Positions 1 to 45,405 of a stretch of DNA of 64,000 nt are shown one piece after another. Source of the DNA: Candidatus Bathyarchaeota archaeon (lineage in GTDB: Archaea; Thermoproteota; Bathyarchaeia; Bathyarchaeales; Bathycorpusculaceae); the NCBI GenBank assembly GCA_963815095.1, contig CAWFFH010000004.1:1-64000 (forward strand). The letters run 5' to 3'. Position 1 is the first letter of the stretch; every line of letters starts with the position of its first letter. The translations under genes were made by a program, and so were the position numbers. The notes beneath the pieces are model-generated. The model saw only the letters and a program-made list of their open reading frames with translations, did not search any database and was not told the DNA's origin.

Positions 1-543
1 ATGCTTAAGTACTACAGCAAAAGCGAACACGGATAAAAGCAGAGGCAGAATTGCTAATGCTGGAAACTCTGGAACGGATGGATTTGCAGAAGGCGTTGGG
101 GTTCCTGTAGATACATAAAACGATAACGGCTCAGACGCTATGCTATCCTCTACTCCACCAAAGTATATGCCATAATATATCCATCGAGCCGCGTATACTA
201 CAACTTGATGTTTACCATTCGATAAGTCGTTTAACGTGACGTTTCCACTAATTGTAACGTTAGAGTGACCATCTAAACAATAACTAAAAGTATCTATTCC
301 CCAGCGTCCTTTTTCACTCACCGATAAGTTTGGTGGTAAATCAAATGTGCCGTTGGTTTGAACAGTAAATACAAGCGAAATGACATTAGAGTAATTTGAA
401 TTAAGAGTTGGGCTTACTATAGAAATCTGAGGTGCTGGAGGAATAGGTAGAGATTGCGCTTTTGTCAGTTCAATTGCTATCGATGAAAATGACATCATTA
501 TTAGAATCAGAACTAAAGCCAAACTCTTACGTAGATTACCCAT
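1..543 (-). CDS. Secreted surface protein with PEF-CTERM-like anchor (3' end runs off the window)
   Basis: Manual translation from the ATG at 543: MGNLRKSLALVLIL...SVPEFPALAILPLLLSVFAFAVVLKH; signal peptide plus PEF-TM tail. Confidence 0.8.
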   Translation of the reverse strand, partial: MGNLRKSLALVLILIMMSFSSIAIELTKAQSLPIPPAPQISIVSPTLNSNYSNVISLVFTVQTNGTFDLPPNLSVSEKGRWGIDTFSYCLDGHSNVTISGNVTLNDLSNGKHQVVVYAARWIYYGIYFGGVEDSIASEPLSFYVSTGTPTPSANPSVPEFPALAILPLLLSVFAFAVVLKH

Positions 544-577
544 AGGTTAAAGATAAAACGGTTTTCAATAAAAGGTT

Positions 578-647
578 ATAGTTAATATTTCATGACTAAC
601 ATTCGTCAAACTTTCTTGACTAAGCCCAGTCAACGTTTCTTGACCAA
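578..647. repeat. Three tandem motif-A palindromes (consensus TTAGTCAA-N6-TTGACTAA), 24-bp period
   Basis: ATAGTTAA-TATTTC-ATGACTAA (578), TTCGTCAA-ACTTTC-TTGACTAA (602), CCAGTCAA-CGTTTC-TTGACCAA (626). Confidence 0.8.
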
Positions 648-676
648 ACAAACGTAGTCTAGATGGGGGAAAAGGT

Positions 677-1228
677 CTAACCACTAATCTTTCTTTTTCT
701 TGTTCCGCATACTATAATTGTCAATCCTGATAAGGCAACACCTAAACCAAGATAGAAAAATTGGAAAGGAAGTAAGGGAACATTTTGGGTTACATCTCTA
801 TATGCTGTCTCTGACCATTGTTTGGTTACTTGCCAATGAACGTCCTTTGAAGTAAATGTGCTTGAACTAATAAGAACAAAGTTGTAGCTTGAGTTTTGAG
901 GGACTGTCCAGTTTATGTTAACGGTTGTTAGGTTTGGATATGATAAGTAAGTTGTCGAACCATTATTAACTGTGAAGTCTATGCGTTTGCTTGAATTTAC
1001 GTTAACTTGAATATTCAAGTAGTCTCCAGCATTTAGAGAAAGTCCATCAGCAACTTTTGACGTTGGAGCTACATCCATCAAAAGACCAAAGCAACCTATA
1101 AGCACCATTGATTTTGGAATTTGATATGCCTCACTTGTGGTTTTGGGAAAGGAAACAAGCGTAAATGCGGTTAATAGAACGCCCAAAATAAGTGCAATAA
1201 TTCCAATAGCCAAGAGTGCTTTTTTCAT
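677..1228 (-). CDS. Membrane protein with N- and C-terminal TM helices and a beta-rich extracellular domain
   Basis: ORF track; hydrophobic ends and basic tail. Confidence 0.75.
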   Translation of the reverse strand: MKKALLAIGIIALILGVLLTAFTLVSFPKTTSEAYQIPKSMVLIGCFGLLMDVAPTSKVADGLSLNAGDYLNIQVNVNSSKRIDFTVNNGSTTYLSYPNLTTVNINWTVPQNSSYNFVLISSSTFTSKDVHWQVTKQWSETAYRDVTQNVPLLPFQFFYLGLGVALSGLTIIVCGTRKRKISG

Positions 1229-1269
1229 TTAATTTGCTTCCGATAACCAAGTTATTAATCTAACTTTTA

Positions 1270-1306
1270 GTTCTATTGACGGAACAAGCTGTTCCAAGTA
1301 TGGAAC
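1270..1306. promoter_or_regulatory. Motif B: tandem GTTCY-N6-RGAAC palindromes (putative operator)
   Basis: GTTCT-ATTGAC-GGAAC aagct GTTCC-AAGTAT-GGAAC, 42 bp upstream of the start at 1228. Confidence 0.7.
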
Positions 1307-1453
1307 ATATAAAAGCTGATTCTAAACATGGTGTGGGTACACCCAAGCGTGGGAAAAGGTCTACTTACTTAGTGAAACAGTTTTTCGCCTTCTCTCATGA
1401 AAGACGGTTCTCTAAGCCAGCGACCAACTTATCCTGAAAGCCAGTAAACCAAA

Positions 1454-2500
1454 CTACGCACCAATCTTTTTTAGCTTTTCTCCATAACGCCTCGTATTAG
1501 CACAGCTATAGACCTCACGCCTACTTAGCATGAACCAAACAATCTTAAGCATCTTACAAGCAACAGCAACAGCAGCCTTCTGATCACCACGCCTAGCCCT
1601 CACACGCTCATAAAACCCAGCCAATTTCTCATCATACTGCACAGCAGTCCTCGCAGCCTCAACCATAACCCACCTCAACAAGCTAGAACCACGCTTAGTA
1701 ATCCTACCAGTATACTCAACATTCCCAGATTGATGCACCGACGGAGCCAAACCAGCCCAAGAAATCAACTTCTTATAACTACTAAACCGCGTTATCGGAC
1801 CAATTTCACTATGAATCAACAATGCACCATAAACATCAACACCAGTCAAGCTAAGTAGCAACCGAACATCCTCATCCTCACAAGCGATTTTTCGAATAGC
1901 TTTATCCACCATCCCGACCTGCAAGTTAATAGATTCAATCAGCGAAAGATGGTTTTCCAAAATCAGTCTATCAAGCTCATTAAGTATCAGTGACCTCATC
2001 CAAGCAATTCCACCTTTACCGAACATATCTGAGAATTCACAACGATAACTATACTTGTCAACGATTGCATGTGCCTTGTTCTTTATAGCCGTGCGCATTC
2101 TAACCAAGCTCAGCCTATGCCTAACTAAACCTCGCATTTCACGTATGCTTCCTTGCGGAACATAGCTTTCAGCAACAAGATCAGCTCTCAGCAAATGCGC
2201 CAAAATCCTAGCATCCACCTTATCAGTTTTTATTTTCGCTGAAGCTATCACTTTAGTCTTCAATGGATTAGCCAGCACTACCTTAATGCTTCTATTATCC
2301 AATGCATCGTATATGCTTAGCCACAAATTCCCTGTAGATTCCATAACAACCTGATCCTCAACAGTTAGCATAGACGTCAAAGACTCTATTCCTTTAGTGT
2401 TGTTTTCAAAGAAGAATTCGCTCTCGATGGCGCCGGTTTGATTCATTATTGCTGCTCTGCATTTGGCTTTGCCAACATCTACTCCTACATATCTCACCAT
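1454..2500 (-). CDS. IS110-family DEDD transposase (bridge recombinase)
   Basis: VGVDVGK, MESTG and KTDKVDA motifs; C-terminal GLAPSVHQSG / ITKRG / A.VAVACK motifs. Confidence 0.95.
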   Translation of the reverse strand: MVRYVGVDVGKAKCRAAIMNQTGAIESEFFFENNTKGIESLTSMLTVEDQVVMESTGNLWLSIYDALDNRSIKVVLANPLKTKVIASAKIKTDKVDARILAHLLRADLVAESYVPQGSIREMRGLVRHRLSLVRMRTAIKNKAHAIVDKYSYRCEFSDMFGKGGIAWMRSLILNELDRLILENHLSLIESINLQVGMVDKAIRKIACEDEDVRLLLSLTGVDVYGALLIHSEIGPITRFSSYKKLISWAGLAPSVHQSGNVEYTGRITKRGSSLLRWVMVEAARTAVQYDEKLAGFYERVRARRGDQKAAVAVACKMLKIVWFMLSRREVYSCANTRRYGEKLKKIGA

Positions 2501-2511
2501 TTTTTTTCTTT

Positions 2512-2637
2512 CTCCTGCTGGCTTTCAGGCTGCAATCTCTCATACGGGCGAATGCCCAGTTCTATAGCAGCTCAGGTCAAGCCCAGTCTAAAAATCGGCC
2601 GCAAGGGCCAAGAAGGCACCGGACTAGCCAGCAAGAG
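2512..2637 (-). ncRNA. Putative IS110 bridge RNA
   Basis: Possible 12-bp closing helix plus two stem-internal-loop-hairpin domains; loop sequences match the target (GCCUUCU, UUUUUAGA) and donor (AUGAGAGA, UAUAG..CU) sites. Confidence 0.8.
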
Positions 2638-4005
2638 TTACTTTCTCACTCGTCTTTCATATAGTCTAAAAAGCAATAACGCGACACATATTACAATAAA
2701 CGCAATGGCGACCAAGAAATAAATACCCACAGACGCAGTTGGTGAAGATTCAGATATTTGATGTTCAAATGGTGGCTCTTCAAAAACAACGGACGAATAT
2801 GCGGTTGCCCAGTCAGGTAAGCTGATACTTACGCTTGAAGTATTAAACTCAGCCAAAAGAGGATAATTATCTCTTCTTGTTACATCGATAATAAAGGGTG
2901 AATCTCCGATGCCATCGCCATTTGCATCTGATCCGTTGTAACTGCTCCAATAATTACCTCTTTCTCCATTGTCAAAAGAACCACCCTGATGTGCTGTCCA
3001 ATTATGGTCTGTTCCAACTATTACAGTGTCCGTGTTTACATCCTGACTATTATTGACAAAATTATTATCATAGAAGACATTGTTTGCCCCAATTCCCCAA
3101 ATGTTTGCGACATAAGCTCCATCTTGGTTTGCGGTTACTTGGTTACCAAAATAGGTGTTGTTGTGTCCTTCCGTGGCGGCTTTTATCCCAACATCATTAT
3201 TCATTATTTCATTTTTTCCCAAAACGCAATTTGACGCATCACTTGATGTGCCTATACCACAGGTGCTATTGCTAATTTGATTGTTAAAAACTATATATCC
3301 ATCGCCGCCTACCGCTATTCCATTGCCATCCGTGACTATGTTTCCGCAAATAATGTCAGTAGTATGGGTAGCAACCATAGACCCAAGTGCATTATTTACC
3401 CAAATATCGCCGATTACCCTGTTTCCAGCGATGATGTTGTTCGATGAACTATAACATTCAACGCTTCCCCTGACTGTGTTTTGGGTAAAAATCTGGTAAG
3501 AACCCATCAAGAAAACAGAGTTATTTTGAATGATGTTACCTGTTATCAGAGTATTGTTTCCGTTAATAAGATAGAGACCACCCATACTTGTGGCATTGCT
3601 CGAAAATGTGAAGCCTGAAATCTTAACGTTATCAGCGGTAACTTCAAGTGAATTTTCGTAACTGGAAACTTGACTCCAATCAAATGGAATCGGATTATCG
3701 TATTCTATCCATTTAGGGCTAAGTTTGATTTGAGTAGTGGATTGGTCTTCACCTTTGAGCCAAACAGTTTTGTTAATAACTAAACTTGATTCAAAATACG
3801 TACCGCTTTTAACAAAAATAGTGTCGCCATTTGTAGCGTTTCCTATCGCTGTGGTAACAGTCGGGTAGTCATCTGGAACAACGATTGTTCTACTTTGGGC
3901 TTTAACGGTCGAAGGTGGTAGAAAAACTAAGGACATAAAGAATAATAAAACAAGAAATAATGCGAAGGTTTTGCCGATTTTGCCCATGCTTAGTAATAGG
4001 TACAT
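2638..4005 (-). CDS. NosD/right-handed beta-helix surface protein; C-terminal tail replaced by the IS insertion
   Basis: IVVPDDYPT, GDTIFVKSGTY, GNYWSSYNGSDANGDGIGD, DNYPL motifs; likely start MGKIGK at 3987. Confidence 0.85.
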   Translation of the reverse strand: MYLLLSMGKIGKTFALFLVLLFFMSLVFLPPSTVKAQSRTIVVPDDYPTVTTAIGNATNGDTIFVKSGTYFESSLVINKTVWLKGEDQSTTQIKLSPKWIEYDNPIPFDWSQVSSYENSLEVTADNVKISGFTFSSNATSMGGLYLINGNNTLITGNIIQNNSVFLMGSYQIFTQNTVRGSVECYSSSNNIIAGNRVIGDIWVNNALGSMVATHTTDIICGNIVTDGNGIAVGGDGYIVFNNQISNSTCGIGTSSDASNCVLGKNEIMNNDVGIKAATEGHNNTYFGNQVTANQDGAYVANIWGIGANNVFYDNNFVNNSQDVNTDTVIVGTDHNWTAHQGGSFDNGERGNYWSSYNGSDANGDGIGDSPFIIDVTRRDNYPLLAEFNTSSVSISLPDWATAYSSVVFEEPPFEHQISESSPTASVGIYFLVAIAFIVICVALLLFRLYERRVRK

Positions 4006-5372
4006 AGAAGCGTTAAAAGTGTTTTTGTATAGGTTTCTTGACTAAGTGAATATTTTTTAGTCCAAGTTTCTTGACTAAACCATTGATTACCCTTCGTACA
4101 ATAAACTAACAACCCAGCAGCCACAACCATCGTAGTAAGCAACAATAGTGATGCCCAGAAGGGAACCTCTGGAACAGTGGGAGTCGGAGTTGGCGAAGGT
4201 GTTGGGATTGATGGCAAAACGGATGAAATATTATAAGCGTAAAGGTTTCCCTCATAAGGTTGAACATATAGAATACCGTTTGCGTAGCTAAAAGAAGACA
4301 AGTTAATTCCACCGTTTTGATTAGTCCAAAGCGGATAAGTCCAAAGTTGTACACCGTTCGTTATATTTAGAGCATAGAGGATATCGCCATTGACAGCTGC
4401 ACCAGCAATGCATACTACGTTATCAATAACTACAGGGGATGATTCTATCTGAATAATATTTGATTTCCAGATTTGAGCATTGTTGGAAGCATTGATGGAA
4501 TAAATGTTGTTGCCATATAATTGAGCCTCTATGTAAACCTCATCAGGTCCAGCAACAGCTGAAGTGCCGCCAACAATATCGGCGATAATGCTGCGGTCAA
4601 TGTCTAACTTTTTACCGTTAGTTGCGTTTAAAGCAAAGTATTCGACAGCTTCATTATTGATGTAAACTACGCCGTTGAGAACCTTAGGGGAGCTATCAAT
4701 CCATAAACCTGTATCGTAATTCCAAAGCAAGATGCCTGTAGAAGCGTTTATGGCATATACGTGGTGGTCGCCACTTCCGATGAAGACAACTCCATTGGAG
4801 AAGACTGGAGCTGTATAAATTTGCCAAAAGGAAGAACCTAATATGCAATGCCAAAGTTGGATGCCGTTTGAAGCGTTAAAAGCGTAAACGCTGTTATCGA
4901 TAGAGCCAATGAAGACAATTCCATTAATTACGGATGAGGGATGACTGAGGTGTCCTATTGGGGATTTCCAAATTATGTCCCCGGTGGAAGCGTTTAGAGC
5001 GTAAACGTTGGTGATTGAACCGATGTATATTATTCCGCTGGAAACGGTTAGCGAAGGAGTAAAAGGGGAGATTGTTTGAATGTCGGAGGAAGAAACCTCT
5101 GAATATGCGTTAAAGCTCCATAAGACGTTGGCGTTTTCATTGTCTAACGCGTAGATGCTGCCATTTTTTGTGCTCACGTAAATTATGTTTTTGGCAGTGG
5201 ATAAAGAATAAGCTAAATCATTTGAAGAGTTCCAAATGACTGTTCGAGTAATTGAAACAGATGGGTTTGTGCTATTTTGAGCACTTGCAGGGTTAACTAT
5301 CAGCGTCGTCAGGCATGACATAGAAATGATGAAAGTAAGGAATAATGCGAAAGTCTTGTTGGTTTTACCCAT
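3990..5372 (-). CDS. PQQ-like (BamB-type) beta-propeller surface protein with PT linker and PEF-like anchor
   Basis: Repeats of V(F/Y)IGS.D..VYA.NAS.G...[16 protein letters not shown] followed by a TM helix; the tail reads through motif A. Confidence 0.85.
   Translation of the reverse strand: MGKTNKTFALFLTFIISMSCLTTLIVNPASAQNSTNPSVSITRTVIWNSSNDLAYSLSTAKNIIYVSTKNGSIYALDNENANVLWSFNAYSEVSSSDIQTISPFTPSLTVSSGIIYIGSITNVYALNASTGDIIWKSPIGHLSHPSSVINGIVFIGSIDNSVYAFNASNGIQLWHCILGSSFWQIYTAPVFSNGVVFIGSGDHHVYAINASTGILLWNYDTGLWIDSSPKVLNGVVYINNEAVEYFALNATNGKKLDIDRSIIADIVGGTSAVAGPDEVYIEAQLYGNNIYSINASNNAQIWKSNIIQIESSPVVIDNVVCIAGAAVNGDILYALNITNGVQLWTYPLWTNQNGGINLSSFSYANGILYVQPYEGNLYAYNISSVLPSIPTPSPTPTPTVPEVPFWASLLLLTTMVVAAGLLVYCTKGNQWFSQETWTKKYSLSQETYTKTLLTLLCTYY
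4024..4078. repeat. Two motif-A palindromes
   Basis: TTTGTATA-GGTTTC-TTGACTAA (4024) and TTAGTCCA-AGTTTC-TTGACTAA (4057). Confidence 0.75.
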
Positions 5373-5408
5373 ATTTAGTAATAGGGGTATAGAGGCGATA
5401 AAAGACTA

Positions 5409-5430
5409 TTCGTAAACAAAGATTGATAAA
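5409..5430. repeat. Degenerate motif A
   Basis: TTCGTAAA-CAAAGA-TTGATAAA, 37 bp upstream of the ATG at 5372, the same spacing as other copies. Confidence 0.5.
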
Positions 5431-5432
5431 GG

Positions 5433-5471
5433 TCATTGCTTCAAGTTAGCGGTTTTTCGATGCCTTCTAAA
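5433..5471 (-). pseudogene. Orphan C-terminal tail of a surface-protein gene (FRRHRKTANLKQ*)
   Basis: Minus strand reads TTT AGA AGG CAT CGA AAA ACC GCT AAC TTG AAG CAA TGA with no upstream ORF. Confidence 0.65.
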
Positions 5472-5649
5472 AGTTGCCTGAAATAGGTTAATCCATTAGC
5501 AGCTTTTTAGTTTTAAGAAGCCCGACAAAAAAGGCTGTGACGAAAAAAAGCGATGATTCGAAATGAGCCTATCGGATAACCTAATCGAACATCTTTGGGA
5601 AGCATCGCAGTCACTCTTTTTTAGCTTCACAAATGATAGGAATCTTTGT

Positions 5650-6570
5650 TTAAGGTTTGGTGTGCTCGATAAGTGTCATGTCCATGCTCATGTTCATTGC
5701 GTAGTTCAAAGTTGCTGATTGAGTAGAAACACTTTCTTGCATGCTTGCCTTAATTTGCCTCATCGTTCCATATTCCATGTAAATTTGATAGTTCATATCC
5801 ATGCTTATGGTAATGTTTGCTGGTGTAAAGTTGCTCATTCCGCTTAACGGCGAATGATAGTTCATTCTTAAGTCGTTGCTTGTAATGTCTATCCTGAAAA
5901 CTTTGTATGTTCCTGCAGGCACTGTGAGGTCTTGGATGCCTTTGAAAGTCATTTTTAGGCCGCCAGTTATCCCAAGGCTTGAGTTTCCAGTTGGAAATGG
6001 CACATTTACAGAGTCGCCCACTTTGACTTCTGGCTGGTTTAGCAGCTGGGCAAGATAGGAAGTACTTGTTAAGCCGTTGTTGGGTATTTCTTGCTGTGTG
6101 CTTCCAAGGTTAAGAAGGTAAGTTGAATATCCAGTTTTGTTCATTTTCTCAATAATTGAGACGCTAATTGGTTTGTTGTTTAGATTATTCATTGTCATTG
6201 TATGATTCAAAGTATAGTATTCACCGTCAAAACCAGTGACTTCTATGGTTTGCTGGGAATTAATGGTAGTATTCTTAGGCATAATAGTGCTAGATCCAGT
6301 TGCCAAAGCCGAATTATCGTAACTGGCAGTTATAGTTGAGTCATAAACCATCTTCTCGCCAACAGTATAATCAACATTTAGAGGTATTACCGATTGGCCA
6401 AGAGGAACAAAAAGTGCTATGCCAATAATTGCAACGGCAGTAATGGCCACCAAAGAAAAGAACTTTTTCCCAAGCCACCTTCGCTTGACAGGCGTAGATG
6501 AAATTGTTTGTTCATTTGCACTGGGCAATTCTGGAGATGATGCCACTAGTTTATCTCGAATGTCATTCAT
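5650..6570 (-). CDS. Membrane-anchored extracellular protein
   Basis: N-terminal TM helix; LTVPAGTYKVFRI motif. Confidence 0.8.
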   Translation of the reverse strand: MNDIRDKLVASSPELPSANEQTISSTPVKRRWLGKKFFSLVAITAVAIIGIALFVPLGQSVIPLNVDYTVGEKMVYDSTITASYDNSALATGSSTIMPKNTTINSQQTIEVTGFDGEYYTLNHTMTMNNLNNKPISVSIIEKMNKTGYSTYLLNLGSTQQEIPNNGLTSTSYLAQLLNQPEVKVGDSVNVPFPTGNSSLGITGGLKMTFKGIQDLTVPAGTYKVFRIDITSNDLRMNYHSPLSGMSNFTPANITISMDMNYQIYMEYGTMRQIKASMQESVSTQSATLNYAMNMSMDMTLIEHTKP

Positions 6571-6610
6571 ACGTATTACCTGTCAGCCATTTAGTAGTTT
6601 TATGCTTATA

Positions 6611-6647
6611 GCTCTACTGACAGAACACTTTGTTCTACCAGTAGAAC
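6611..6647. promoter_or_regulatory. Motif B tandem palindromes
   Basis: GCTCT-ACTGAC-AGAAC acttt GTTCT-ACCAGT-AGAAC, 41 bp upstream of the start at 6570. Confidence 0.75.
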
Positions 6648-6650
6648 AGC

Positions 6651-6965
6651 CTAAGGTCCTTCAGTCTCAACTTTCAATTCTAAAAATTTTAGTAACAGCA
6701 ACAACAAAGCCAAAAGAACGGCAACAAACCATACGCCAACCAACTCCAAGTACACAACATTACCTGTACGATAGAATAACTGGAAGAGGAGTATACCAAA
6801 AACACCTTCCAATCCTGCACCAACAGGACCTATGGCGTAAAAGAAACGCTTGTTCTTTGCTCGAAGTTTTGAAAAACAGACTGAACAAGTAATCGGATTC
6901 AAGTTATTGAATGACAAGACTTTCCGAACTTCAATTTTGCTACCACACTTTGGACAAACGACCAA
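6651..6965 (-). CDS. Zinc-ribbon protein with two TM helices
   Basis: CPKC...CSVC followed by two hydrophobic helices. Confidence 0.7.
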   Translation of the reverse strand: MVVCPKCGSKIEVRKVLSFNNLNPITCSVCFSKLRAKNKRFFYAIGPVGAGLEGVFGILLFQLFYRTGNVVYLELVGVWFVAVLLALLLLLLKFLELKVETEGP

Positions 6966-7012
6966 TCTTTTCTACCTCCAAATCAAGAACAGACTCTACA
7001 TTGCAGCTTTTC

Positions 7013-7504
7013 TCATACAGTCTTTTTCTTCCAGCTATCATTCTGAGTTTTCTTTCGCAGCCACATTCCTTCGCTAAGAAACAAAACCATAGCAATGGCG
7101 GTTGGCCCCAGTAAATAGAAGAGATACAACTCTGGAGTTTGGCCACTTTGGAAGAAGGGAATCGCTATTGCTATTGCTTCTACGACTAATATGCCGATGA
7201 AAAAGAATGCATAAAATATTAGTCGCGGAACTAAGGTTTTTCCTATCCACAAGTGACCGCTGATGTTTATTTTTTCTTTGATTCTGTATTCGCCATAATC
7301 ATCCTTTGTAATTAAACCTAGTGATTCCAGTTTTTGCAGGTGCCAATACGCAACGCTTGGGCTGCTCAGATTTGCGAGCCGCATGGTTTCGCGTGGACCT
7401 AACGGTTTACCTTCCTTTACCATACACGAATAAACGTTTAGGGTTGTACCTTCAAGTTCTTCTCCGTTTGTCAATTTATGGCTCCCCTTTGATAAATGCT
7501 TCAA
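7013..7504 (-). CDS. Membrane-anchored winged-HTH transcription regulator
   Basis: GPRETMRLANLSSPSVAYWHLQKLESLGLI wHTH followed by two TM helices. Confidence 0.8.
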   Translation of the reverse strand: MKHLSKGSHKLTNGEELEGTTLNVYSCMVKEGKPLGPRETMRLANLSSPSVAYWHLQKLESLGLITKDDYGEYRIKEKINISGHLWIGKTLVPRLIFYAFFFIGILVVEAIAIAIPFFQSGQTPELYLFYLLGPTAIAMVLFLSEGMWLRKKTQNDSWKKKTV

Positions 7505-8678
7505 TACCGTTGGGAGAGAGCTGGAATGTTTGGCTACCTAAGAGTACAGCGTTGTAAATGTATCCGTTGGGAGTAATTTGGAGTTGCACTGGCTTAAGCC
7601 ATGTAGCTGTTGCAAGAGTGTTATAATATACTCCGTCTACTGGCATGTTATTAATGAAGCTAGTTATTGATCCATAGAGAGTTATGCTCCCGTTTCCAAG
7701 ATTTGCGAGGGTGCTGTTTGTTCCCTCCGCGTTGTTGTAAGATTGCATCCCTGTGAAAGCTATAAGTTTTGATTGGTGCGGATCCCAAACGTAGCTAAAT
7801 CCTGTTCCGCCTGACCATTTGAGTGTTGGACCGTTGGAGTTGTACGTGTGCCAATCAGGAAATGAAGTTACTGGACCGACACTTGAATTCATATTTTGAT
7901 AGATTGGTGTGCCCGAGGCTAACACTTGATCTACAAGGGTATTGCTTGCAAGAACCATCGGTTGAGGTATGCCCGGTTGTACTCTTCCGGTTACATCCAC
8001 CCATCCTCCGTTAATGTAAATTTGAGTCTGGGACATTTTTGTGGCATCATAGGATTCGCCTATTGGAACGCCCTCTATCCAGGTGCCTTCATCAGTTGCA
8101 TTTTCTGGCAAATCAGGAATTGAAGATAAGGTTCTATGCTGTGGAGTCATTATTTGAAAAACGTTATAGGGATAATTCTTCCCAGGAATCCATGTTGTGT
8201 TTACCCATTTGCCGTCCAGCCATACCCCGTTTACGACACCGCCAAAACTAACGCCTGGATCTTTCGCGTAGCCTCGGTTGAAGGATTCTCCGCCTAATGC
8301 TGAATTAACTATGTTTATGTTTTGAGCAGCTGCAAAGCCCATCTCATGCATCTTAGCGCTCAAATCAGAGAGATTAGTTACGTTAGCAATAACTGTGTAA
8401 GTTACGTTTGTGAAAGGAATAGACTCAGTAACGTTCACTGAAGAGTAGTTGCCAGTCAATGGGTCAAGAACCCATTTTCGCACAGTCTGGTTCTGCTGCC
8501 ACTCAATAACAGTCAGATTAGCGTACAATATATTGATGCTAAAATCTGCTTTTTGTCCTTCGCTGGCATGTGGGTAAGGTTTAACGTCCAATGGCACTAT
8601 GAGCATTGGCGCCGCAAAAGCCGTTCCACTTAACAAGGCTAAAACAGCAACGATGATGAGTTTGACCTTGAAATCCAT
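7476..8678 (-). CDS. Secreted/extracellular protein overlapping the downstream wHTH gene
   Basis: Signal peptide; 400-aa ORF whose end overlaps the regulator start. Confidence 0.75.
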   Translation of the reverse strand: MDFKVKLIIVAVLALLSGTAFAAPMLIVPLDVKPYPHASEGQKADFSINILYANLTVIEWQQNQTVRKWVLDPLTGNYSSVNVTESIPFTNVTYTVIANVTNLSDLSAKMHEMGFAAAQNINIVNSALGGESFNRGYAKDPGVSFGGVVNGVWLDGKWVNTTWIPGKNYPYNVFQIMTPQHRTLSSIPDLPENATDEGTWIEGVPIGESYDATKMSQTQIYINGGWVDVTGRVQPGIPQPMVLASNTLVDQVLASGTPIYQNMNSSVGPVTSFPDWHTYNSNGPTLKWSGGTGFSYVWDPHQSKLIAFTGMQSYNNAEGTNSTLANLGNGSITLYGSITSFINNMPVDGVYYNTLATATWLKPVQLQITPNGYIYNAVLLGSQTFQLSPNGIEAFIKGEP

Positions 8679-8717
8679 ACACTGTCACCGCAAACTATTG
8701 TCTTATTGTGCTTATTA

Positions 8718-8754
8718 GCTCTGGTCATAGAACGTTTCGTTCTAACAGTAGAAC
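8718..8754. promoter_or_regulatory. Motif B tandem palindromes
   Basis: GCTCT-GGTCAT-AGAAC gtttc GTTCT-AACAGT-AGAAC, 40 bp upstream of the start at 8678. Confidence 0.75.
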
Positions 8755-8852
8755 AAGCACAAATTCTCAAAAGTAACTCTGTCGAAAAATACATTTTGGT
8801 CAGCTTAACGGAAGAAGTTGTTCTCAAAAACGTAAACTTAGCATTTTAAATA

Positions 8853-8900
8853 GGTCACTAATATTGGAAACTCTGGAACGGTTGGAGATGGGTTGGTCAA
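8853..8900 (-). pseudogene. Remnant of a PEF-CTERM gene end
   Basis: Minus strand reads TNPSPTVPEFPILV with no intact ORF. Confidence 0.5.
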
Positions 8901-8993
8901 ATCAGAACTTGCTTGTATGGTGGATCAACTGTTGAGTGCATCTCAAATTTTATAAAGCAACCATCGCGCCATACTGTTTTAGGGACCGCTTGC

Positions 8994-9077
8994 ATGACTG
9001 ACTTCAATAATGACGAACAAGCTGCAGAGGCAATCTGTAGGGTATTAACTGCTCTAGTAACTGTTGACTGGAGCTGA
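8994..9077 (+). CDS. 27-aa mini-ORF resembling the N-terminus of the next gene
   Basis: MTDFNNDEQAAEAICRVLTALVTVDWS* versus MAINFNDKEQANKAIYTAILAL. Confidence 0.45.
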   Translation: MTDFNNDEQAAEAICRVLTALVTVDWS

Positions 9078-9081
9078 AAGG

Positions 9082-9540
9082 ATGGCCATAAATTTTAACG
9101 ATAAAGAGCAGGCAAACAAAGCAATCTACACTGCTATATTAGCACTGAATTCTCCTTATGCCCTGCAGACTGACGCTGTGTTAGTTCAAGCTGCGCCGGT
9201 TCAGAACCAATGGTACACCGTTTTAGACACCAAAGTGAATGCTCGTATCTACTCGATTGTGCCAATCGTTTGGGTTGCCGATGAGACAATAGAAATTAGA
9301 ATTACCACGAAAAATCGCACGTTTACAGGCAGCTTCAACGCAACGCACACGACTTACTATTGGGCGTTTTTAAAGATGTACGGTGAAGGCTTAGACTTTG
9401 ACACCGCAAATAAGCGATTAGCTGGCTTTGATGCTCCCTTAGAAGATCCTAGCATAAAAATCGAGATAAGAAAGACAACTGCTAACGGCGCTGGGAATCT
9501 GGAGTGCCGGGTTGTTTGGGCTCAAAAAGAAACAGCCTAA
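9082..9540 (+). CDS. Hypothetical beta-rich protein, possibly a virion component
   Basis: ORF track (in-frame ATG at 9082); orientation and style match the proviral segments. Confidence 0.6.
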   Translation: MAINFNDKEQANKAIYTAILALNSPYALQTDAVLVQAAPVQNQWYTVLDTKVNARIYSIVPIVWVADETIEIRITTKNRTFTGSFNATHTTYYWAFLKMYGEGLDFDTANKRLAGFDAPLEDPSIKIEIRKTTANGAGNLECRVVWAQKETA

Positions 9541-9559
9541 TTTTTGGCTTCTTCATGCT

Positions 9560-10485
9560 TTATCCAGTGTTTTTCCCTCTTTTCTTGAGCTTGGCGTAGA
9601 CCAGCACGGCTGCAACCACTGCAACAAATAAGAGAGCAGCTGAAACAGGCACTAATGGGAAAGGCTCTGTCCGTGGAGGTTCCGCACCAGTATTAATGGT
9701 CGGATGCATTGTTGTGATAGGTGTAGCTGATGGAAAAAGGCTAAAGTTAGGAATCTCAAAATCGGTTATCGGGTTAACTAATGGATGGTAATCAATGCTT
9801 CTGCCCGTTGCCCACGAGTATCTATCATCTATGTAGGGTGTGTTCCAGATTCCCAACCCTTCAACTTGGGTGGCGTTAGGATATTTGATTGTGTAGTTGC
9901 TCCAGTAGTTCCTATCCACAAAGGGTGCATCTGCTAAATCAACAAGTGTGCCACTGTCAAAGAAGTTGTTTTCAGTTAGGACATCATGTCCTCCAAGGTT
10001 ATAATCGACAAAAATATAGGAATCAATGAAAAAAGTTGTTTTTTACGACATTTCCTTCTCCGGTGCGCTAGGATATGAATTCGGGTGTTTTCGAAGCGGT
10101 TGCCTATGAAACTGTTGTTGTTTGAGGGAGTGTATATGCCTTCTGAGGAGGTGGAAATTCGCAGATTCTTCACTAAGACATTACCGTATGCATTAAAGGT
10201 CTCATCATGTCCAACAAGATTTATACCTCTCCCGTTCCCTTCAAGGGTATGTCCCGCTCCATCAATTGTAATGCCAGCTTTCTGAACTGTTATGGTGCCA
10301 AAAATATCTACTATAAAGGTGTAGGTGCTCCCGTTTCGTTGAAGCCAAGTAAAATCGGTGTTTGGTTCAACGCTTCCATCTGCCTTAATGGTTAGATTGA
10401 GCGGTTCTTGCGCTCTAACAGGTAGCATAACAATTGAAAGGGAAACTATGAAGCTTATTGTAATTAGTGCAATTAGGGCTTTCAT
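9560..10485 (-). pseudogene. Frameshifted NosD-like beta-helix surface protein with EPF-TM anchor
   Basis: ORFs 9976-10509 (ITIDGAGHTL) and 9560-9919 (RNYWSNY, DYHPL, TEPFP-TM) form one gene broken by indels. Confidence 0.75.
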
Positions 10486-10530
10486 TTGGTATCTCCAATA
10501 GGTGTCCAAAATTTTTGTTTTATAAGGGTT

Positions 10531-10552
10531 TTCGTCAAGGAACCTTGACTAA
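10531..10552. repeat. Motif A
   Basis: TTCGTCAA-GGAACC-TTGACTAA next to the BRE/TATA of the 10485 gene. Confidence 0.75.
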
Positions 10553-10670
10553 GCACTCAATGGACGAGAATAGTGTAATTTGTTTTAGTATTTTGTGATT
10601 AAAGTCAATAGCTCAAGTCTTATAACGGCTAGCTGACAAACCCTCTCTAAAATGCAGGGGTAAGTCAGTT

Positions 10671-11397
10671 TTGAAACTGCATGCACTACTAAATCTCTAC
10701 AACGATCGAACCTTCATTGCGGCGATGCTTGAGAGCATCCGAGACATCGCAGACTCATTGATAGTTGTGGATGGCGCCTATTCGCAGTATTTGGAGCACT
10801 ACAAAGCCTTTGTTCCAGACGCAAAAGCATGGAGTACCGATGGCAGCCTTGAGATCATCGAAGCCTTCCAAGACAAACCCGAAGTCCATATCTTTAAAAC
10901 TAAGGATGAAAATACCTGTTGGGAAAACCAAGCGGTTAAGCGTAACTTTTTGATCGAGCAGGTTCCCGATGGCGATCCCGTTTCTCATTATCGATGCAGA
11001 CGAGATGATAATGGGCGATGCGCAAGAGGCGCTTGAGAAGTTCTATGAATCGGGCTGTCTAGCGATGCAAACTCCGCTCTACACTCCTGGTCTGCAGCAG
11101 GACCGCATCATTCCCCGTTGGCATCCCCGAGTATTCATCAAACGCCCAGGCATGCACTACAAAGGCACTCATTGGCACCTCCGAGACAAAGCCGACCGCA
11201 TCATAGAAGAGAAATATCCTATGTTCTTCACAGACCTCACAGCATTGGTTCACCTCAAGAGCTTCAAGGACAACTCACGGCTGATTCCCCATCAAAACTA
11301 CATGTTAACCCTAGCCGAGAGGGGATGGACCGAAACCTCCCCCGGGCAAACAAAAGAAGGCGAAAAGAAACCATGGATAGAAGAAACCAAACCATAG
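10671..11397 (+). CDS. GT-A fold (GT2-like) glycosyltransferase, frameshifted near 10975
   Basis: IVVDG, STDGS, KRN and FLIIDADE (DxD) motifs split over two ORFs. Confidence 0.75.
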
Positions 11398-11651
11398 AGC
11401 AATTTGTACGAGACACTGACTTCATGGCTAAGCTCAAAGCAGCCCTCGAAAATATTGAGCAAGGCAGAGGCTTCGCAGTTTTTGAAGGCCTCCAAAAAAA
11501 GGGCACCTGCAACATCGCCATAACCTTTGACGGCAAAGACAGTCTTTACGTGGCTGCCCTGGATCTTTCAAGCGTAAGACCTGAAGTGCGTGTCAAACAA
11601 GAAACCCCCAAAAACATAGAAAGCAAACCTGAGAGGTCTGGCAAGAAATGA
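11373..11651 (+). CDS. Hypothetical protein
   Basis: MDRRNQTIEQF...; translationally coupled to its neighbours. Confidence 0.55.
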   Translation: MDRRNQTIEQFVRDTDFMAKLKAALENIEQGRGFAVFEGLQKKGTCNIAITFDGKDSLYVAALDLSSVRPEVRVKQETPKNIESKPERSGKK

Positions 11652-12697
11652 GTCAGATGAGCTATAATGCGGAATATGATGCATCAACCGTACTTGAGCA
11701 GCCGCAGAATAAGACAAAGCTCAAAGTGCTCAACCTCGCTACTCAAGACATGGCAGGGGCAGGATACTGTCTTAGTCATGCCCTAAACAAGCTACCCGAT
11801 GTCCAGAGCATTAATCTGCGCACAAGCAACAACTACCTAAACTATCCCTCGATGTCAGAAGCCCGCCACTATGGCAAAGAAGGCTGCAAACAAATCGTCG
11901 AAGACGCCGACGTCGTCATTTTCCACAGTGCCGTACGACCCTTTTTTGATGCCTTCCAACTTGACAAAGAGAAGCTAAAAGCCAAACGTAAGTTCGTCTA
12001 TTTCCATGGTAGCGAATGCAGAAACTATGGTGAACAAATTATCAAGGACGCCAAGGATGTTATGGGCGACTTTGACATCCTCGTCTCTACACCCGACCTC
12101 TTAACACTGGTTCCACCAGAGAATAGTTATTGGCTACCTGTTGCCCGGGACTTTAAGGCCATCAAAAACAAATACGGCGACAACGCGGAGGATCAGGCTG
12201 CTCTCAGGGGCTGGGCTGAGCTTAAACGCCGCACGGTTCTTGGGCATGCACCGACAAACCTGCAGCTCAAGGGCTCAGCGCTCTTCTATAAGGTTATAAC
12301 CGAAATAATTGAAACCATCGATGATGTCGAGTTTCAAAGCATCAAGGATCTGCCCTGGGATAGCTGCCTGCGACTTCTGCGCACAGTTAACGTTCTATAT
12401 GATCAGCATGTCATCGGTAGCTACGGTATGGTTGCAGTGGAAGCATCCATTTTTGGCGCTGCAGTTTTCTGCAAACTCAAGCCCGAAGTTGCGGCATTCA
12501 TCGAAAAGGAGACAGGAGAAAAACAGCCTTTCATCCAATGGATAGATGAGGATGAGCTTAGGACCCAGAGCTTTATGATAGCCCAAGACCCCAAGCTGCA
12601 GCAAGAGTTCGGAGCTAAAACATACGAGTTCTGCCACCGACTCCACGATGACATCAACGTAGCAACACGCTTCATGCGCCTGCTAGAGAAAACTTGA
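11648..12697 (+). CDS. GT-B fold glycosyltransferase-like protein
   Basis: FHGSE, HAPTN..LKG and DQ..IGSYGMVAVEA motifs. Confidence 0.75.
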   Translation: MSQMSYNAEYDASTVLEQPQNKTKLKVLNLATQDMAGAGYCLSHALNKLPDVQSINLRTSNNYLNYPSMSEARHYGKEGCKQIVEDADVVIFHSAVRPFFDAFQLDKEKLKAKRKFVYFHGSECRNYGEQIIKDAKDVMGDFDILVSTPDLLTLVPPENSYWLPVARDFKAIKNKYGDNAEDQAALRGWAELKRRTVLGHAPTNLQLKGSALFYKVITEIIETIDDVEFQSIKDLPWDSCLRLLRTVNVLYDQHVIGSYGMVAVEASIFGAAVFCKLKPEVAAFIEKETGEKQPFIQWIDEDELRTQSFMIAQDPKLQQEFGAKTYEFCHRLHDDINVATRFMRLLEKT

Positions 12698-12703
12698 GAG
12701 GTT

Positions 12704-13293
12704 ATGCGACTTTTGGGTTACCGTGGACGTTCCCCAACTCTGCAGGATATGCTCAACTATTGGGAGAGTAGAGCCTCCTCCTACTATGTTGAGGATCCCT
12801 TCGGCAGAAGTATTCTAAAAGCTTTCATAGACAAGCTCCAGCCGCAGAGCCTAATCGAAATCGGCTGCGGCAACGGGGAACTTTTGCAGCTCTACAGGAA
12901 CGTACCTAGCGCTGTAGGAGTTGACTGGAGCGAAAACATGCTTCAGAGAGCAAACCAACGTAAAGCCCGCCACTTTTTACCCAACCTGAGGCTTTGGCGC
13001 CATGACATAACACAATGCGCCCTCAAGGACACTACGACGTCGCCGTTACCCGCACAGTCCTAATGCACATTCCACCGGAGGCTATGGAGAAAACCGTGCG
13101 CCACGTTGCTAAATGTGCCGATCGATTTCTCATCTTCGAGTACTTTGAGTCCATTAAAACCGTTCCTTTGGCGCCGCATAATTGGCTACATGACTATGTC
13201 TCGCTTTTTGAGAAAGAAAACTGTGAACTCATCGAAAACTACGCCCGAGCAGACCTACCCCAGGTGCTTTTCGTATTCCAAAAAAAGCAGTAG
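12704..13293 (+). CDS. Class I SAM-dependent methyltransferase, frameshifted near 13020
   Basis: IEIGCGNG and GVDWSENML, then YDVAVTRTVLMHIP in a second frame. Confidence 0.8.
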
Positions 13294-13349
13294 ACTGCAC
13301 CCCAAGGTCAACAAAAATGCAGAAAAACTGTAGTTTCATCCTTAATGTG

Positions 13350-13395
13350 TTAGTTAAGAAACCTTGACTGTTCTTAGTCAAGAGTCTTGTACGAG
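13350..13395. repeat. Two tandem motif-A copies (24-bp period), opposite orientation, between convergent genes
   Basis: TTAGTTAA-GAAACC-TTGACTGT and TTAGTCAA-GAGTCT-TGTACGAG. Confidence 0.7.
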
Positions 13396-43290: not shown

Positions 43291-43513
43291 CATTGACTTT
43301 TCAAAAGATAAACCTACCCAGGACAAATTCAAGCAAGATTTAGGTTTCTGTCCGCGATGCAAAGACCCAATTCAGCCAGAGCATATCGAAGGTTATGCAA
43401 GCCGATCTGTCGACGGAGTGTTGTTCTGCACTCTTTGCGCTTGGCACCTCGAAGGCGATCCAAACGAACGGAAAAAATGGGCAAAATTGGCAAAAGCGGA
43501 GGCTTCTATTTGA
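43280..43513 (+). CDS. Zinc-finger protein
   Basis: CPRC...CTLC. Confidence 0.6.
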   Translation: MPFSIDFSKDKPTQDKFKQDLGFCPRCKDPIQPEHIEGYASRSVDGVLFCTLCAWHLEGDPNERKKWAKLAKAEASI

Positions 43514-45405
43514 TGGCTAGTGAGGAGGGAAAAGTTGGCTTGCATTCTAAGAGCTTTCGCCCACGCAAAGCCGGTGAGGATAGTTGCAAGTCAGTTACTA
43601 CCATAACTGCCGGCGCCAGCTCCCAAATCCTCAAATCTGTTTATGTCAGGTATAGAGACCACGCCTTTTTCAGGAATGTTCAGTCACCCGTAGTTGAAGC
43701 GGTAATTCGGGAAGCGTTGGGCTGGGTTAAAAAAGAGAATGATGAGGTTATGCTTATCGAGTGTGATAGACCTCTTCTGGAGGGCTTCAGTGGCTTTAAT
43801 GGTGTGGTTATTCTTAAAAACTGCATCGTTTCCATGGTTGAGTTGCCGCTGGACCGTTTTTCAAGTGGAACTTTAAATTGTTCGGCTGTTAAAGAGAGAG
43901 TGAGTACTGCGCTTCTAGCCAAAAGAAGCGAAAAACTCACCCCTAAAAACAAGCGGAAGGGGCAAGAATTGATAGAGCGAAAAACGCAACCTATAGTAAT
44001 AGAGCGAAAACGTAACCTCACCGTTGATGACCTAAAAAAACTCAATCTGCCACTGCAATTCCAAGGCAAATTCGTCATTATCGAGAAAACCTTGAACAAC
44101 ATACGACTGCAAAATCCTCTTAGCTTAGAGCTCAGCAAAATCTTAGCAACCGGAGAAACAGGACTCGTAGACTACATCATACGCAGCTGCCTCAACAAGT
44201 ACCCCAACATTATTCCCTACATCTTTGAACATCAAAGCATGGTAAGGATGTCCCGGCACTTTCTACGTTACTGCTGCGGTTCTCTTGAGAGCTGTCCCAC
44301 ATATGCACTGCGATTCAAAAAATATGCTGACTGGCTCGGATACAGCCCTGATTTAATCATCCAAGATGTCAAACCTGTTGGCGCAATTCCCGATCCCCTA
44401 AAAGTGCAAAACCACTGTGGATTCTTAAGCGACTACTTAGCCGCCCTACAAGACAGCGATCTTAAGCCAGGCGCAGTCTGCAACTACATTAAAACAGTCA
44501 AAACCTTCTATCGCACCAATGGAGTAAAAAAAATTGAACTAGACGAACCCTTGAGCCGAAAAGTATCTCACAAAGACAGAGCACCCAAACCCGAGGAACT
44601 CTCGGTAATGCTAGATAAAGCCGCTACCCGTGAAAGCTTTGTCATCGCAGGCGTTGCAACAGGAGGCTTCAGAGAAGGCACCTTTTCCAAACTGAAATAC
44701 CGCCACGTCAAAGAAGACTTAGAAGCCGGACGCGTACCCATCCACATCCATATCGAAGCCAGCATTACCAAGGGTAAATACCACGATTATGATACATTCC
44801 TGAACGCTGAAGCCAGTCATTTCCTCAGATTATACATAGAGGAAAGAAGACAAGGCACCGATGGAATGCCGCCAGAAACAATTACCGACGAATCGCCACT
44901 GGTAAGAAACAGCCACGTCGCAAACAGAGTCTTAGCCGTCAGCGAAAAAACCATCCGAAAAATCGTCCATGACTCCGCTGTCGAAGCAAAGGTCGCAAAA
45001 AAACTACCTAACAGCTGGATGTATAGCGTTAGAACCCATAGCTTAAGAAAATTCTTCAGAACCCAATTAAGCGCGGCAAAAATCGACGACGAAATCATCA
45101 AGTACATGATGGGAAAAACAATCGATACCTACGAAGATGTTCAGAGCTTGGGCATTGAAACCCTTAGAAACCTATATTCAGCCGCAGGATTAGCCATCAG
45201 AGCGAAAACCAAAGTAAACCGCATTGATCAACTCAAAGAAATCATACGCGGCTGGGGAGAAAACCCCGAGGAAATTCTCGCCAAAGATATCTTGATACGT
45301 AGCAATCAGACGGTCGAAACAGACGAACAGATTCAGAACCATCAGTTATCCGTTCTAGCAACCGAACTTAAGCAGATTATCCGCAAGGAGGTTACGGAAA
45401 AATAA
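43513..45405 (+). CDS. Tyrosine recombinase/integrase with an in-frame N-terminal extension
   Basis: GGFREGT (R), TKGK (K), HSLRKFF (HxxR), YMMGK..DTY (Y); plausible starts at 43513 or ~43969. Confidence 0.9.
   Translation: MASEEGKVGLHSKSFRPRKAGEDSCKSVTTITAGASSQILKSVYVRYRDHAFFRNVQSPVVEAVIREALGWVKKENDEVMLIECDRPLLEGFSGFNGVVILKNCIVSMVELPLDRFSSGTLNCSAVKERVSTALLAKRSEKLTPKNKRKGQELIERKTQPIVIERKRNLTVDDLKKLNLPLQFQGKFVIIEKTLNNIRLQNPLSLELSKILATGETGLVDYIIRSCLNKYPNIIPYIFEHQSMVRMSRHFLRYCCGSLESCPTYALRFKKYADWLGYSPDLIIQDVKPVGAIPDPLKVQNHCGFLSDYLAALQDSDLKPGAVCNYIKTVKTFYRTNGVKKIELDEPLSRKVSHKDRAPKPEELSVMLDKAATRESFVIAGVATGGFREGTFSKLKYRHVKEDLEAGRVPIHIHIEASITKGKYHDYDTFLNAEASHFLRLYIEERRQGTDGMPPETITDESPLVRNSHVANRVLAVSEKTIRKIVHDSAVEAKVAKKLPNSWMYSVRTHSLRKFFRTQLSAAKIDDEIIKYMMGKTIDTYEDVQSLGIETLRNLYSAAGLAIRAKTKVNRIDQLKEIIRGWGENPEEILAKDILIRSNQTVETDEQIQNHQLSVLATELKQIIRKEVTEK

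Follow-up and report, generated by a model that had tools for sequence, protein, structure and literature searches.

A putative operator with two site classes at the TATA boxes of surface-protein genes in a Candidatus Bathyarchaeota genome

The sequence analyzed here, referred to as the window, is a 64,000-nucleotide (nt) stretch (contig C4, positions 1–64000) from the 2.69-Mb, nine-contig metagenome-assembled genome of a Candidatus Bathyarchaeota archaeon from soil, with a G+C content of about 41%. Bathyarchaeota are abundant, uncultured archaea, and to our knowledge almost nothing is known of their gene control. Between positions 578 and 13395 of the window a short palindrome, TTAGTCAA-N6-TTGACTAA, recurs in an array of surface-protein genes. 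This raises the question of whether the palindrome is a recombination site at which such genes are shuffled, or a regulatory site; an initial annotation of the sequence had offered both readings. Very probably it is an operator (or upstream activating sequence) to which a sequence-specific transcription factor binds; this factor is probably a winged-helix protein, either dimeric or tandem. What argues for an operator abutting the transcription factor B (TFB) recognition element (BRE) and the TATA box is the geometry relative to the TATA box, the secreted nature of the target proteins, the paired copies and the recurrence of the site across species.

Copies were scored with a position weight matrix (PWM) built from the best copies of the motif within the host genome, designated G000, where contigs carry the prefix C. 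All nine copies reported earlier from the window are present, at 11.6–31.9 bits. Seven match the palindrome above with three or fewer mismatches, against an expectation of 0.59 and a shuffle maximum of two (n = 100). No other position of the window, its remaining ~50 kb included, scores above 8.0 bits. The copies had been taken to mark junctions in the surface-gene array. They are indeed found at gene boundaries, but the motif is genome-wide, and the sites look like array junctions only because every gene in the tandem array is preceded by a promoter of its own. With up to three mismatches the motif has 74 matches in G000. At 14 bits or more there are 65 sites in the genome and five in the reversed genome. 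At 13 bits or more there are 70 sites in 47 clusters, on eight of the nine contigs, and these are the sites analyzed below. Ten of them are inside open reading frames (ORFs) and 60 are outside, although the genome is 79% coding by the crude ORF set used here.

A TATA-like hexamer is located 4, 5 or 6 nt past the end of the site, on one side only, at 34 of the 70 sites (6, 24 and 4 cases, respectively). Such an offset is displayed by 4.8% of 63,779 random non-coding positions (22-mers) taken as a control (binomial P = 3.6e-26). The copy next to the TATA-like box is termed proximal, and its upstream partner distal. Of the 47 clusters, 20 are doubles with one proximal copy, 12 are single proximal sites and one is a double with both copies flagged; a TATA call is lacking at two doubles and at 12 single sites.

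The two types of copy differ in sequence. Taken in the direction of the gene, the proximal copies (n = 34) have the sequence TTAGTCAAG-(A/G)(A/T)(A/T)(C/T)C-TT(T/G)AC(G/A)A(A/G), or in short form TTAGTCAAG-N4/5-CTTkACrAr. The gap that follows consists of AA, two free bases and, in 32 of 34 cases, a C directly before the TATA box, TTTTA(T/A). This C is found in 27% of the other promoters of the genome, which display only a weak A-rich BRE-like region. The distal copies (n = 23) read TTAGTCAAGAAAnnTTGACTAA and are more symmetric. At position 20, 22 of the 23 distal copies have T, and 33 of the 34 proximal ones have G or A. In 21 of the 23 distal copies the spacer is GAAA when read towards the gene; among the proximal spacers, 21 resemble GAAAC, 10 resemble GTTTC and three are ties. 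The arms are 8–9 bp long with 4–6 variable central bases between them, and outside of the 22 bp there is conservation only on the TATA side. The start-to-start spacing of proximal and distal copies is 24 bp in 13 promoters, 32–35 bp in nine and 45 bp in one, and 11 proximal copies have no partner. The three spacing classes are about one helical turn apart, which would fit two bound proteins that keep the same relative face of the DNA.

The genes behind the sites form a coherent set. Thirty of the 34 proximal sites have a gene of the crude set behind them, and 27 of these 30 genes encode a hydrophobic N-terminus, versus 417 of 2383 (17.5%) in the set as a whole (P = 4e-18). Hydrophobic segments at both ends are found in 19 of the 30, versus 173 of 2383 (P = 2e-15). 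Two of the three exceptions at the N-terminus are evident signal peptides just below the threshold chosen by the author, and the third is a 327 amino acid (aa) protein with several winged-helix matches. The Pfam families of the targets are mutually unrelated, i.e. PQQ/BamB-like and Kelch propellers, NosD/right-handed beta-helix and immunoglobulin-like domains, and many targets have no family. The predicted regulon thus comprises about 33 promoters, nearly all of them of apparently secreted proteins, mostly with a putative C-terminal membrane anchor. It also includes two genes with non-secreted products, a multi-winged-helix regulator gene and a zinc-ribbon-like ORF of 59 aa. This ORF was found in seven genomes of the genus out of 18, and is behind double sites in G000, G004, G006 and G013. 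It was considered as the regulator itself and rejected, since a distribution in 7 of 18 genomes is that of a target and not of a universal factor.

Six of the 30 targets end in a literal PEF, a helix and a basic tail, as does gene 1–543 of the window. These ends may be of the kind called PEF-CTERM, in which a C-terminal PEF motif, a membrane helix and a basic tail go with an archaeosortase gene; the NCBIfam sorting-signal models gave no match in 13 targets at E ≤ 0.01. One gene of the exosortase/archaeosortase family (Exosortase_EpsH, 51 bits) is present in the genome. At the other end, many targets begin with MGxIxKxFxLxL. Promoter and signal-peptide DNA is alike between genes: window positions 3932–4019 and 5317–5404 are 77.5% identical, and several promoters of contigs C3 and C8 are 75–85% identical. 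Window positions 4054–4187 and G000:C8:17884–18017 likewise have promoter and signal-peptide DNA in common, in a range of 77–84%, despite differing mature families (NosD-type and PQQ-type). The 3′ anchor parts are also common to genes of different mature families. Judged by such comparisons, the surface-protein genes appear to be mosaics in which variable passenger domains are placed between shared 5′ and 3′ modules.

The motif is conserved in other species of the genus. With no more than one mismatch, 17 of another 18 genomes of the genus contain it, and the 12 genomes taken from 11 other families of this order have no copy. A wider draw shows it in 54 of 61 genomes of the genus, with 0–28 matches per genome and 0–1 for the reversed pattern, and regulon size varies widely between genomes. 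At 46 loci from 11 other genomes, 30 of the 31 sites of proximal type keep the 4–6 nt offset (overlaps between loci cause two sites to be counted double), and 18 of 22 downstream ORFs have a hydrophobic N-terminal start. The site is kept before orthologues with only 45–65% protein identity, while the surrounding leader has diverged. Five small genomes have site counts equal to the control. A variant motif, TTAGTMAA..TTKACTAA, was counted in the small-genome subclade and also equals the control, and therefore a hidden regulon is not indicated there.

In the window, the genes across positions 1–10509 are all on the minus strand and have signal-peptide-like starts, and the majority of the products display a C-terminal membrane helix and a basic tail. 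The genes and the copies of the putative operator are as follows.

1..543, minus strand: target gene, truncated by the window end; product predicted to be secreted (signal-peptide-like start, ..VPEFPALAILPLLL.. anchor at the C-terminus); no Pfam family
566..573, minus strand: TATA-like box of gene 1–543 (caataaaa, reverse complement TTTTATTG); ATG at 543
578..599, minus strand: degenerate promoter-proximal copy of gene 1–543; 11.6 bits; 4 nt further on the minus strand is TTTTATTG
602..623, minus strand: second copy of the gene 1–543 promoter, 24 bp upstream of the first; 29.3 bits, one mismatch
626..647, minus strand: third copy of the gene 1–543 promoter, another 24 bp upstream; 18.2 bits
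2638..4005, minus strand: target gene, predicted secreted NosD/beta-helix protein (Pfam NosD, 9.3e-17); 3′ end replaced by the end of an insertion sequence (IS) (..LLLFRLYERRVRK*)
4024..4045, minus strand: proximal copy of gene 2638–4005; 21.3 bits; TATA-like box begins 5 nt past its end
4057..4078, minus strand: distal copy of gene 2638–4005, 33 bp upstream of the proximal copy; 28.1 bits
3990..5372, minus strand: target gene, predicted secreted PQQ/BamB-like beta-propeller (Pfam PQQ_2, 5.6e-35); its tail reads through copies 4057 and 4024
5409..5430, minus strand: degenerate proximal copy of gene 3990–5372; 13.5 bits; TATA-like box begins 5 nt past its end
9560..10509, minus strand: target gene split into ORFs 9976–10509 and 9560–9919; intact copy (330 aa) at G000:C6:89394–90386
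10531..10552, minus strand: sole proximal copy of gene 9976–10509; 31.9 bits; TTATAAAA begins 4 nt past its end
13350..13371, plus strand: distal copy of an orphan plus-oriented promoter; 16.1 bits; homologous promoters at C2:6659–6725 and C3:1077708–1077769
13374..13395, plus strand: proximal copy of the orphan promoter; 17.1 bits; weakened TATA (tctttCattg), no gene behind it

Read in the sense of the genes, each site group is directly upstream of a TATA-like box. The reported position between the end of one gene and the TATA box of the next is correct, and the first start codon of the ORF follows 18–58 nt past the site. The 24-bp period noted for 578/602/626 and 13350/13374 also holds, and the pair 4024/4057 is 33 bp apart. 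GAAA follows the first arm in six of the nine copies when these are written in the sense of the downstream gene. The orientation of the site is thus real, but the polarity is the direction of transcription. A basic tail, LVKKP*, had been read from the motif in frame; however, no ORF of the window uses it, and ORF 3990–5372 crosses 4024 and 4057 in another frame (..FSQET..). This ORF has no stop past its membrane anchor and continues for ~35 extra codons through both operator copies and the TATA box of the next gene. A paralogue at G000:C8:17862–18608 shows the same read-through.

Sites 10531 and 13350 had been thought to bracket a virus-like block. The block is not virus-like, since the single PHROGs match within positions 10671–13293 is to a generic methyltransferase, and the sites are not a pair: 10531 is the promoter site of a minus-strand gene, 9976–10509, and 13350/13374 is an orphan promoter of the opposite orientation. 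As had been observed, no gene is located downstream of the latter; the two promoters homologous to it elsewhere in the genome are intact.

Positions 5516–8765 contain a four-gene block, the only part of the first 15 kb that is kept in other species (86–88% identity, in G071 and G002). This block has no operator copy. Its products are a 400-aa secreted protein, a winged-helix/membrane protein, a zinc-ribbon membrane protein and a DUF3108-like secreted protein. The winged-helix/membrane type of protein was examined as a possible regulator and is uninformative. One such protein is part of a large paralogous family with 10 matches in G000, and has close orthologues in only 3 of 18 genomes of the genus. 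ORF 7013–7504 is found in 0–10 copies per genome, including genomes where the motif is nearly missing, and neither family is linked to the motif counts.

Could the palindrome be the core site of a tyrosine recombinase (Xer/dif- or pdif-like), with surface-protein genes exchanged as cassettes? Its two inverted arms around a short asymmetric center have the geometry of such a site, the surface-protein region is poorly syntenic between species, and three tyrosine recombinases above the Pfam cut-off are encoded in the genome. The homology of the multi-copy gene 9656–10571 also stops at the outer edge of site 10531 in at least nine matches. Such an end is however expected under either reading, because a conserved motif extends any alignment to its own edge. 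Archaeal dif, as described in the available part of PMC2958812, has 11-bp arms and a 6-bp spacer (28 bp), with a single 11-6-11 candidate per genome in the termination region. The present motif has 70 sites in 47 clusters and arms of 8–9 bp with no conservation past them on the distal side, and neither the rigid distance to the TATA box nor the gene-ward polarity has a role in recombination. The copies are direct tandem pairs and not inverted pairs that flank modules. Breakpoints, which should fall inside the sites if these were recombined, are unrelated to them in comparisons at the species level. The duplication of window positions 8865–10884 (C6:94027–89019, 77–88% identity) crosses site 10531 and stops 330 bp beyond it. 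The block shared with G071 and G002 ends at 5516/5663 and 8765/8744, at least 86 bp from any site, and in these two genomes the two 14-kb stretches around the block have different flanks and no sites. The gene upstream of the double site of the multi-winged-helix regulator gene is the same in 6 of 6 loci, i.e. synteny is kept across the site. No recombinase gene is found beside the arrays. The integrase proposed at 43.5–45.4 kb (ORF 43357–45405, 682 aa) shows no Pfam family at E ≤ 0.001, and its Phage_integrase match is below threshold (21.5 bits versus a cut-off of 27.1); the three clear tyrosine recombinases of the genome are elsewhere (C3:1217914, C6:10001 and C3:564396). Cassette shuffling thus fails on copy number, arm length, the link to the TATA box and breakpoint position, and is extremely improbable.

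Three further explanations were considered. The site could be part of a promoter and signal-peptide module that was inherited and spread by duplication and gene conversion in surface-protein families, with no dedicated factor. The DNA-level likeness of these regions across genes with different Pfam domains and the frequent MGxIxKxFxLxL N-termini are what such a history would leave. Within the promoters, however, only the arms, the AA..C and the TATA box are kept while spacer and gap vary, and the distance between copies changes in ~10-bp steps. The site is also present before the two unrelated non-secreted genes, is retained before orthologues whose leaders have diverged, and in some small genomes is found almost only at the multi-winged-helix gene; inheritance without a factor is highly improbable. 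Another explanation is that an extended BRE is read by one of several TFB paralogues, so that a basal factor sets the promoter class. Six TFIIB repeats are found in three ORFs of the genome, i.e. three TFB genes (C3:894868–895416, C3:1386522–1387073 and C7:76524–77075). The proximal arm departs from the distal arm exactly at the BRE contact (ACrAr and AAnnC), and the C before the TATA box sets the site promoters apart from the others. But the distal copies, which have no TATA box behind them, are the most conserved and the most symmetric, and the conserved left arm is 14–22 nt upstream of the BRE. This is past the reach of TFB, for which the accessible text of PMC5512572 gives a BRE of 6–7 nt. 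A class-specific BRE may contribute, and could add to an operator but cannot replace it; as the whole explanation it has a very small probability. Finally, the palindrome might act in RNA or as a cruciform, with a hairpin that terminates transcription of the upstream gene in the array. In a perfect copy a stem of 9 bp is possible, the TATA box itself supplies a T-run behind it, and the sites in the window come after gene ends. Over the genome, a co-directional gene end within 150 bp upstream is found at only 7 of 34 proximal sites, and a divergent neighbor at 15 of 34. Changes in the arms are uncompensated, e.g. the A at position 3 is opposite a G or an A (position 20) in 33 of the 34 proximal copies, and on average 6.1 of 9 arm positions are complementary. 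Such a hairpin is barely conceivable as the function of the site.

The operator reading is thus the one that is strongly supported, by the rigid 4–6 nt distance to the TATA box, the regulon of secreted proteins, the conservation across species and the helical-turn spacing of the pairs. A fixed position at the BRE and TATA box, enrichment in non-coding DNA before a coherent set of genes, and retention before orthologues as the flanks diverge are all displayed by this element. Each regulated promoter would contain one proximal copy that ends 4–6 nt before the TATA box, with its last bases running into the BRE. Two thirds of the promoters have an additional, more symmetric distal copy 24, 32–35 or 45 bp further upstream, and the two copies may be bound cooperatively. 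The bound factor would help TFB and the TATA-binding protein (TBP) onto the promoter. [quoted passage not shown] For archaeal activators (EarA, Ptr2, the ara-box and TFB-RF1) the usual binding position is directly upstream of the BRE, and they recruit TBP or TFB, according to the sections of PMC5512572 that were available. In the portion of PMC4706686 available, the TrmBL1 palindrome upstream of both BRE and TATA box gives activation, and downstream of them repression.

Related to the possible binding protein, the non-secreted target at G000:C3:649363–650349 has the best double site (C3:650445–650490, 28.9 and 30.5 bits). An alignment of 26 relatives displays four invariant cysteines, C27, C30, C38 and C42. 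The AlphaFold model (mean predicted local distance difference test, pLDDT, 77) shows a helical part at the N-terminus, three winged-helix domains and, at the C-terminus, a long helix. A PDB sequence search with this protein gave no match at E ≤ 1. In Foldseek the model matched no whole chain at E ≤ 0.001; the matches were to single winged-helix domains, for example those of ZitR, HlyU, BigR and Phr. Its Atlas neighbors are Bathyarchaeota clusters with HTH_45, HxlR and TrmB domains. Of 61 genomes of the genus, 57 contain this family, termed here the 4-Cys triple winged helix-turn-helix (wHTH) family.

There are two forms of this family in the genus, a slowly evolving form without the site (in G000 at C3:506324–507256) and a fast-evolving form with the double site. 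At loci of the slow form the motif is found in 0 of 13, and in none of a separate set. The fast form has the double site in eight genomes and in 19 further genomes (19 of 27 loci), i.e. in at least 27 species. At six related regulator-gene loci the double site is present in all six, with differing leader sequence around it. In the tree, eight site-bearing genes are in one weakly supported group (81/43) together with one site-less gene. The only match with one or no mismatch in G005, G016, G017 and G047 precedes the fast-evolving gene, as does the best match with up to two mismatches in G057. A site that is nearly the sole one in its genome suggests self-control of the wHTH gene in these species. 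A conserved hairpin in the mRNA leader of the regulator gene was also considered and dropped by eye, since the leaders suggest remnants of alternative starts (GGAGG-N-ATG) rather than a stem that covaries. Among the roughly 100 HTH proteins encoded in the genome, the 4-Cys triple-wHTH family is a tentative candidate for the binder, at a chance clearly below even.

Several points weigh against the operator reading as given here, or against the extent and regulator proposed for it. The gene calls are the author's crude ORF set, made without a gene finder, and the TATA test uses a list of hexamers of the author's choosing. Twelve of the 47 clusters are the single sites without a TATA-like box, and some of these may be chance matches. 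The site is present at only 20 of the 173 genes with both termini hydrophobic, and the regulon is therefore a sub-regulon of the surface proteome and not the general switch of surface proteins. The sign of regulation is judged by position alone, and a site that overlaps the BRE could equally block TFB. In G018 and G042 (98% complete) the 4-Cys triple-wHTH family is kept, but overall enrichment of sites is absent, with one clear double site in each. Conversely, the family was not found in G004 (15 sites) or G043 (nine sites), both 92% complete, and no site-bearing form turned up in G002 and G013, two single-contig genomes that do contain sites. Overall the family is absent from 3 of 54 motif-bearing genomes, which is within the expected incompleteness, but any core gene would fit likewise.

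A different palindrome is found at the site-free paralogue and its relatives in four other families. ATGACG..GTCAT is located directly past a TATTTAAA/TATATAA box, in two copies at most loci, and has GTCA/TGAC cores in common with the main motif. The loci are L062 (G000:C3:505724–507856), L047, L055, L044 and L054, and in the outgroup L060, L061, L074 and L075. Over the next ~250 nt upstream there is DNA-level conservation across families, as a divergent coding gene would show, and such a gene is a candidate there.

The observations on motif and family can be joined in one reading, in which a Bathyarchaeota-specific 4-Cys triple-wHTH family binds the operator, and the box of its self-controlled copy has spread to surface-protein promoters. 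The family would have split into a slow copy, with ATGACG..GTCAT twice downstream of its own TATA box, and a fast copy with the TTAGTCAAG-type double site upstream of the BRE. In small genomes the latter would be nearly the only copy of the box, i.e. pure self-control. From there the box would have spread, by way of a portable promoter and signal-peptide module, to up to ~40 surface-protein promoters. Taken as a whole this sequence of events is unlikely. If true, it would show, stepwise across one genus, how a master switch of the cell surface that senses redox state or metals arose and grew.

An IS110-family element is located at window positions 1392–2667 (blast extent 1380–2696). It is one of four copies that are >99% identical, each with a 1276-bp core; the others are at G000:C3:1398550–1399866, C3:1060812–1062104 and C4:83619–84914. 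The transposase ORF, 1454–2500 on the minus strand, matches DEDD_Tnp_IS110 and Transposase_20. All four copies are flanked by ..TTTTCG(AT)GCCTT on the left, where the window copy is without the AT, and AAAAAG on the right. At three of the four copies ..CAAyAA comes next, and the gene strand there encodes the basic tail past the C-terminal anchor of a surface protein (..LLFRRHRK..). Two genes hit by the element now end in ..LLLFRLYERRVRK*. Since the insertion site is in the conserved anchor tail, the element targets the 3′ coding end of the surface-gene class and not the palindrome. Apparent empty copies of the target (TTTCGATGCCTT-CT-AAA..) are found at window positions 5455–5475 and in G000:C6 near 94082–94123. 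The empty target in the window is part of a relic gene end (..FRRHRKTANLKQ*) with the gene body upstream gone. Three genes appear to be split into overlapping ORFs, i.e. 9560–10509 (surface protein), 10671–11651 (no family) and 12704–13293 (methyltransferase), and these are frameshifts or assembly errors. The G+C content is 45–46% at 10–14 kb, versus ~40% around it.

The motif provides a precise cis-element that can be synthesized, with 34 natural promoters of equal 4–6 nt geometry, two site classes and helically phased pairs. Together with a defined surface-protein regulon and a short list of candidate regulators, it allows in-vitro tests that need no culture of the organism. The motif is also a caution that a short dyad with an asymmetric center in a variable gene array need not mean a recombination site. 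The general view of archaeal transcription is unchanged by the finding. Among the papers listed by a literature search, none ties TTAGTCAAG or CTTGACTAA to archaea, and none joins Bathyarchaeia with a regulon or binding motif.

With the Xer/dif system (XerA in archaea, and its bacterial counterparts) the element shares an imperfect inverted repeat around a short central region, and it differs in arm length (8–9 bp), number (70 copies) and the tie to TATA boxes. Arrays of pdif modules consist of modules between inverted site pairs, independent of promoters, whereas the present sites are direct tandem pairs, gene-oriented, before single genes. The TGM box of TrmBL1 in Pyrococcus furiosus (TATCAC-N5-GTGATA; PMC4706686, available in part) is a palindromic box of a winged-helix regulator at some tens of promoters, as is proposed here. 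Its sequence and half-site spacing are different, however. According to the same partial source the TrmBL1 regulon is sugar metabolism with boxes on either side of the promoter, whereas here all 34 TATA-linked sites are upstream at a fixed 4–6 nt and the targets are predicted to be secreted. The candidate regulator itself has no TrmB Pfam match, TrmB being found only in the related Atlas clusters. The sites of EarA at the fla promoter of Methanococcus maripaludis, the Ptr2 sites and the Sulfolobus ara-box are also right upstream of both BRE and TATA box and often in multiple copies. As far as the available text of PMC5512572 goes, they act by helping TBP or TFB onto the promoter, and EarA controls a cell-surface structure. 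The candidate regulators match no EarA, Ptr2 or Lrp family. EarA binds four 6-bp words at one operon, in contrast to a 22-bp dyad of two site classes at about 33 promoters. The kind of system is thus already known, while the motif and its regulon are new and well defined.

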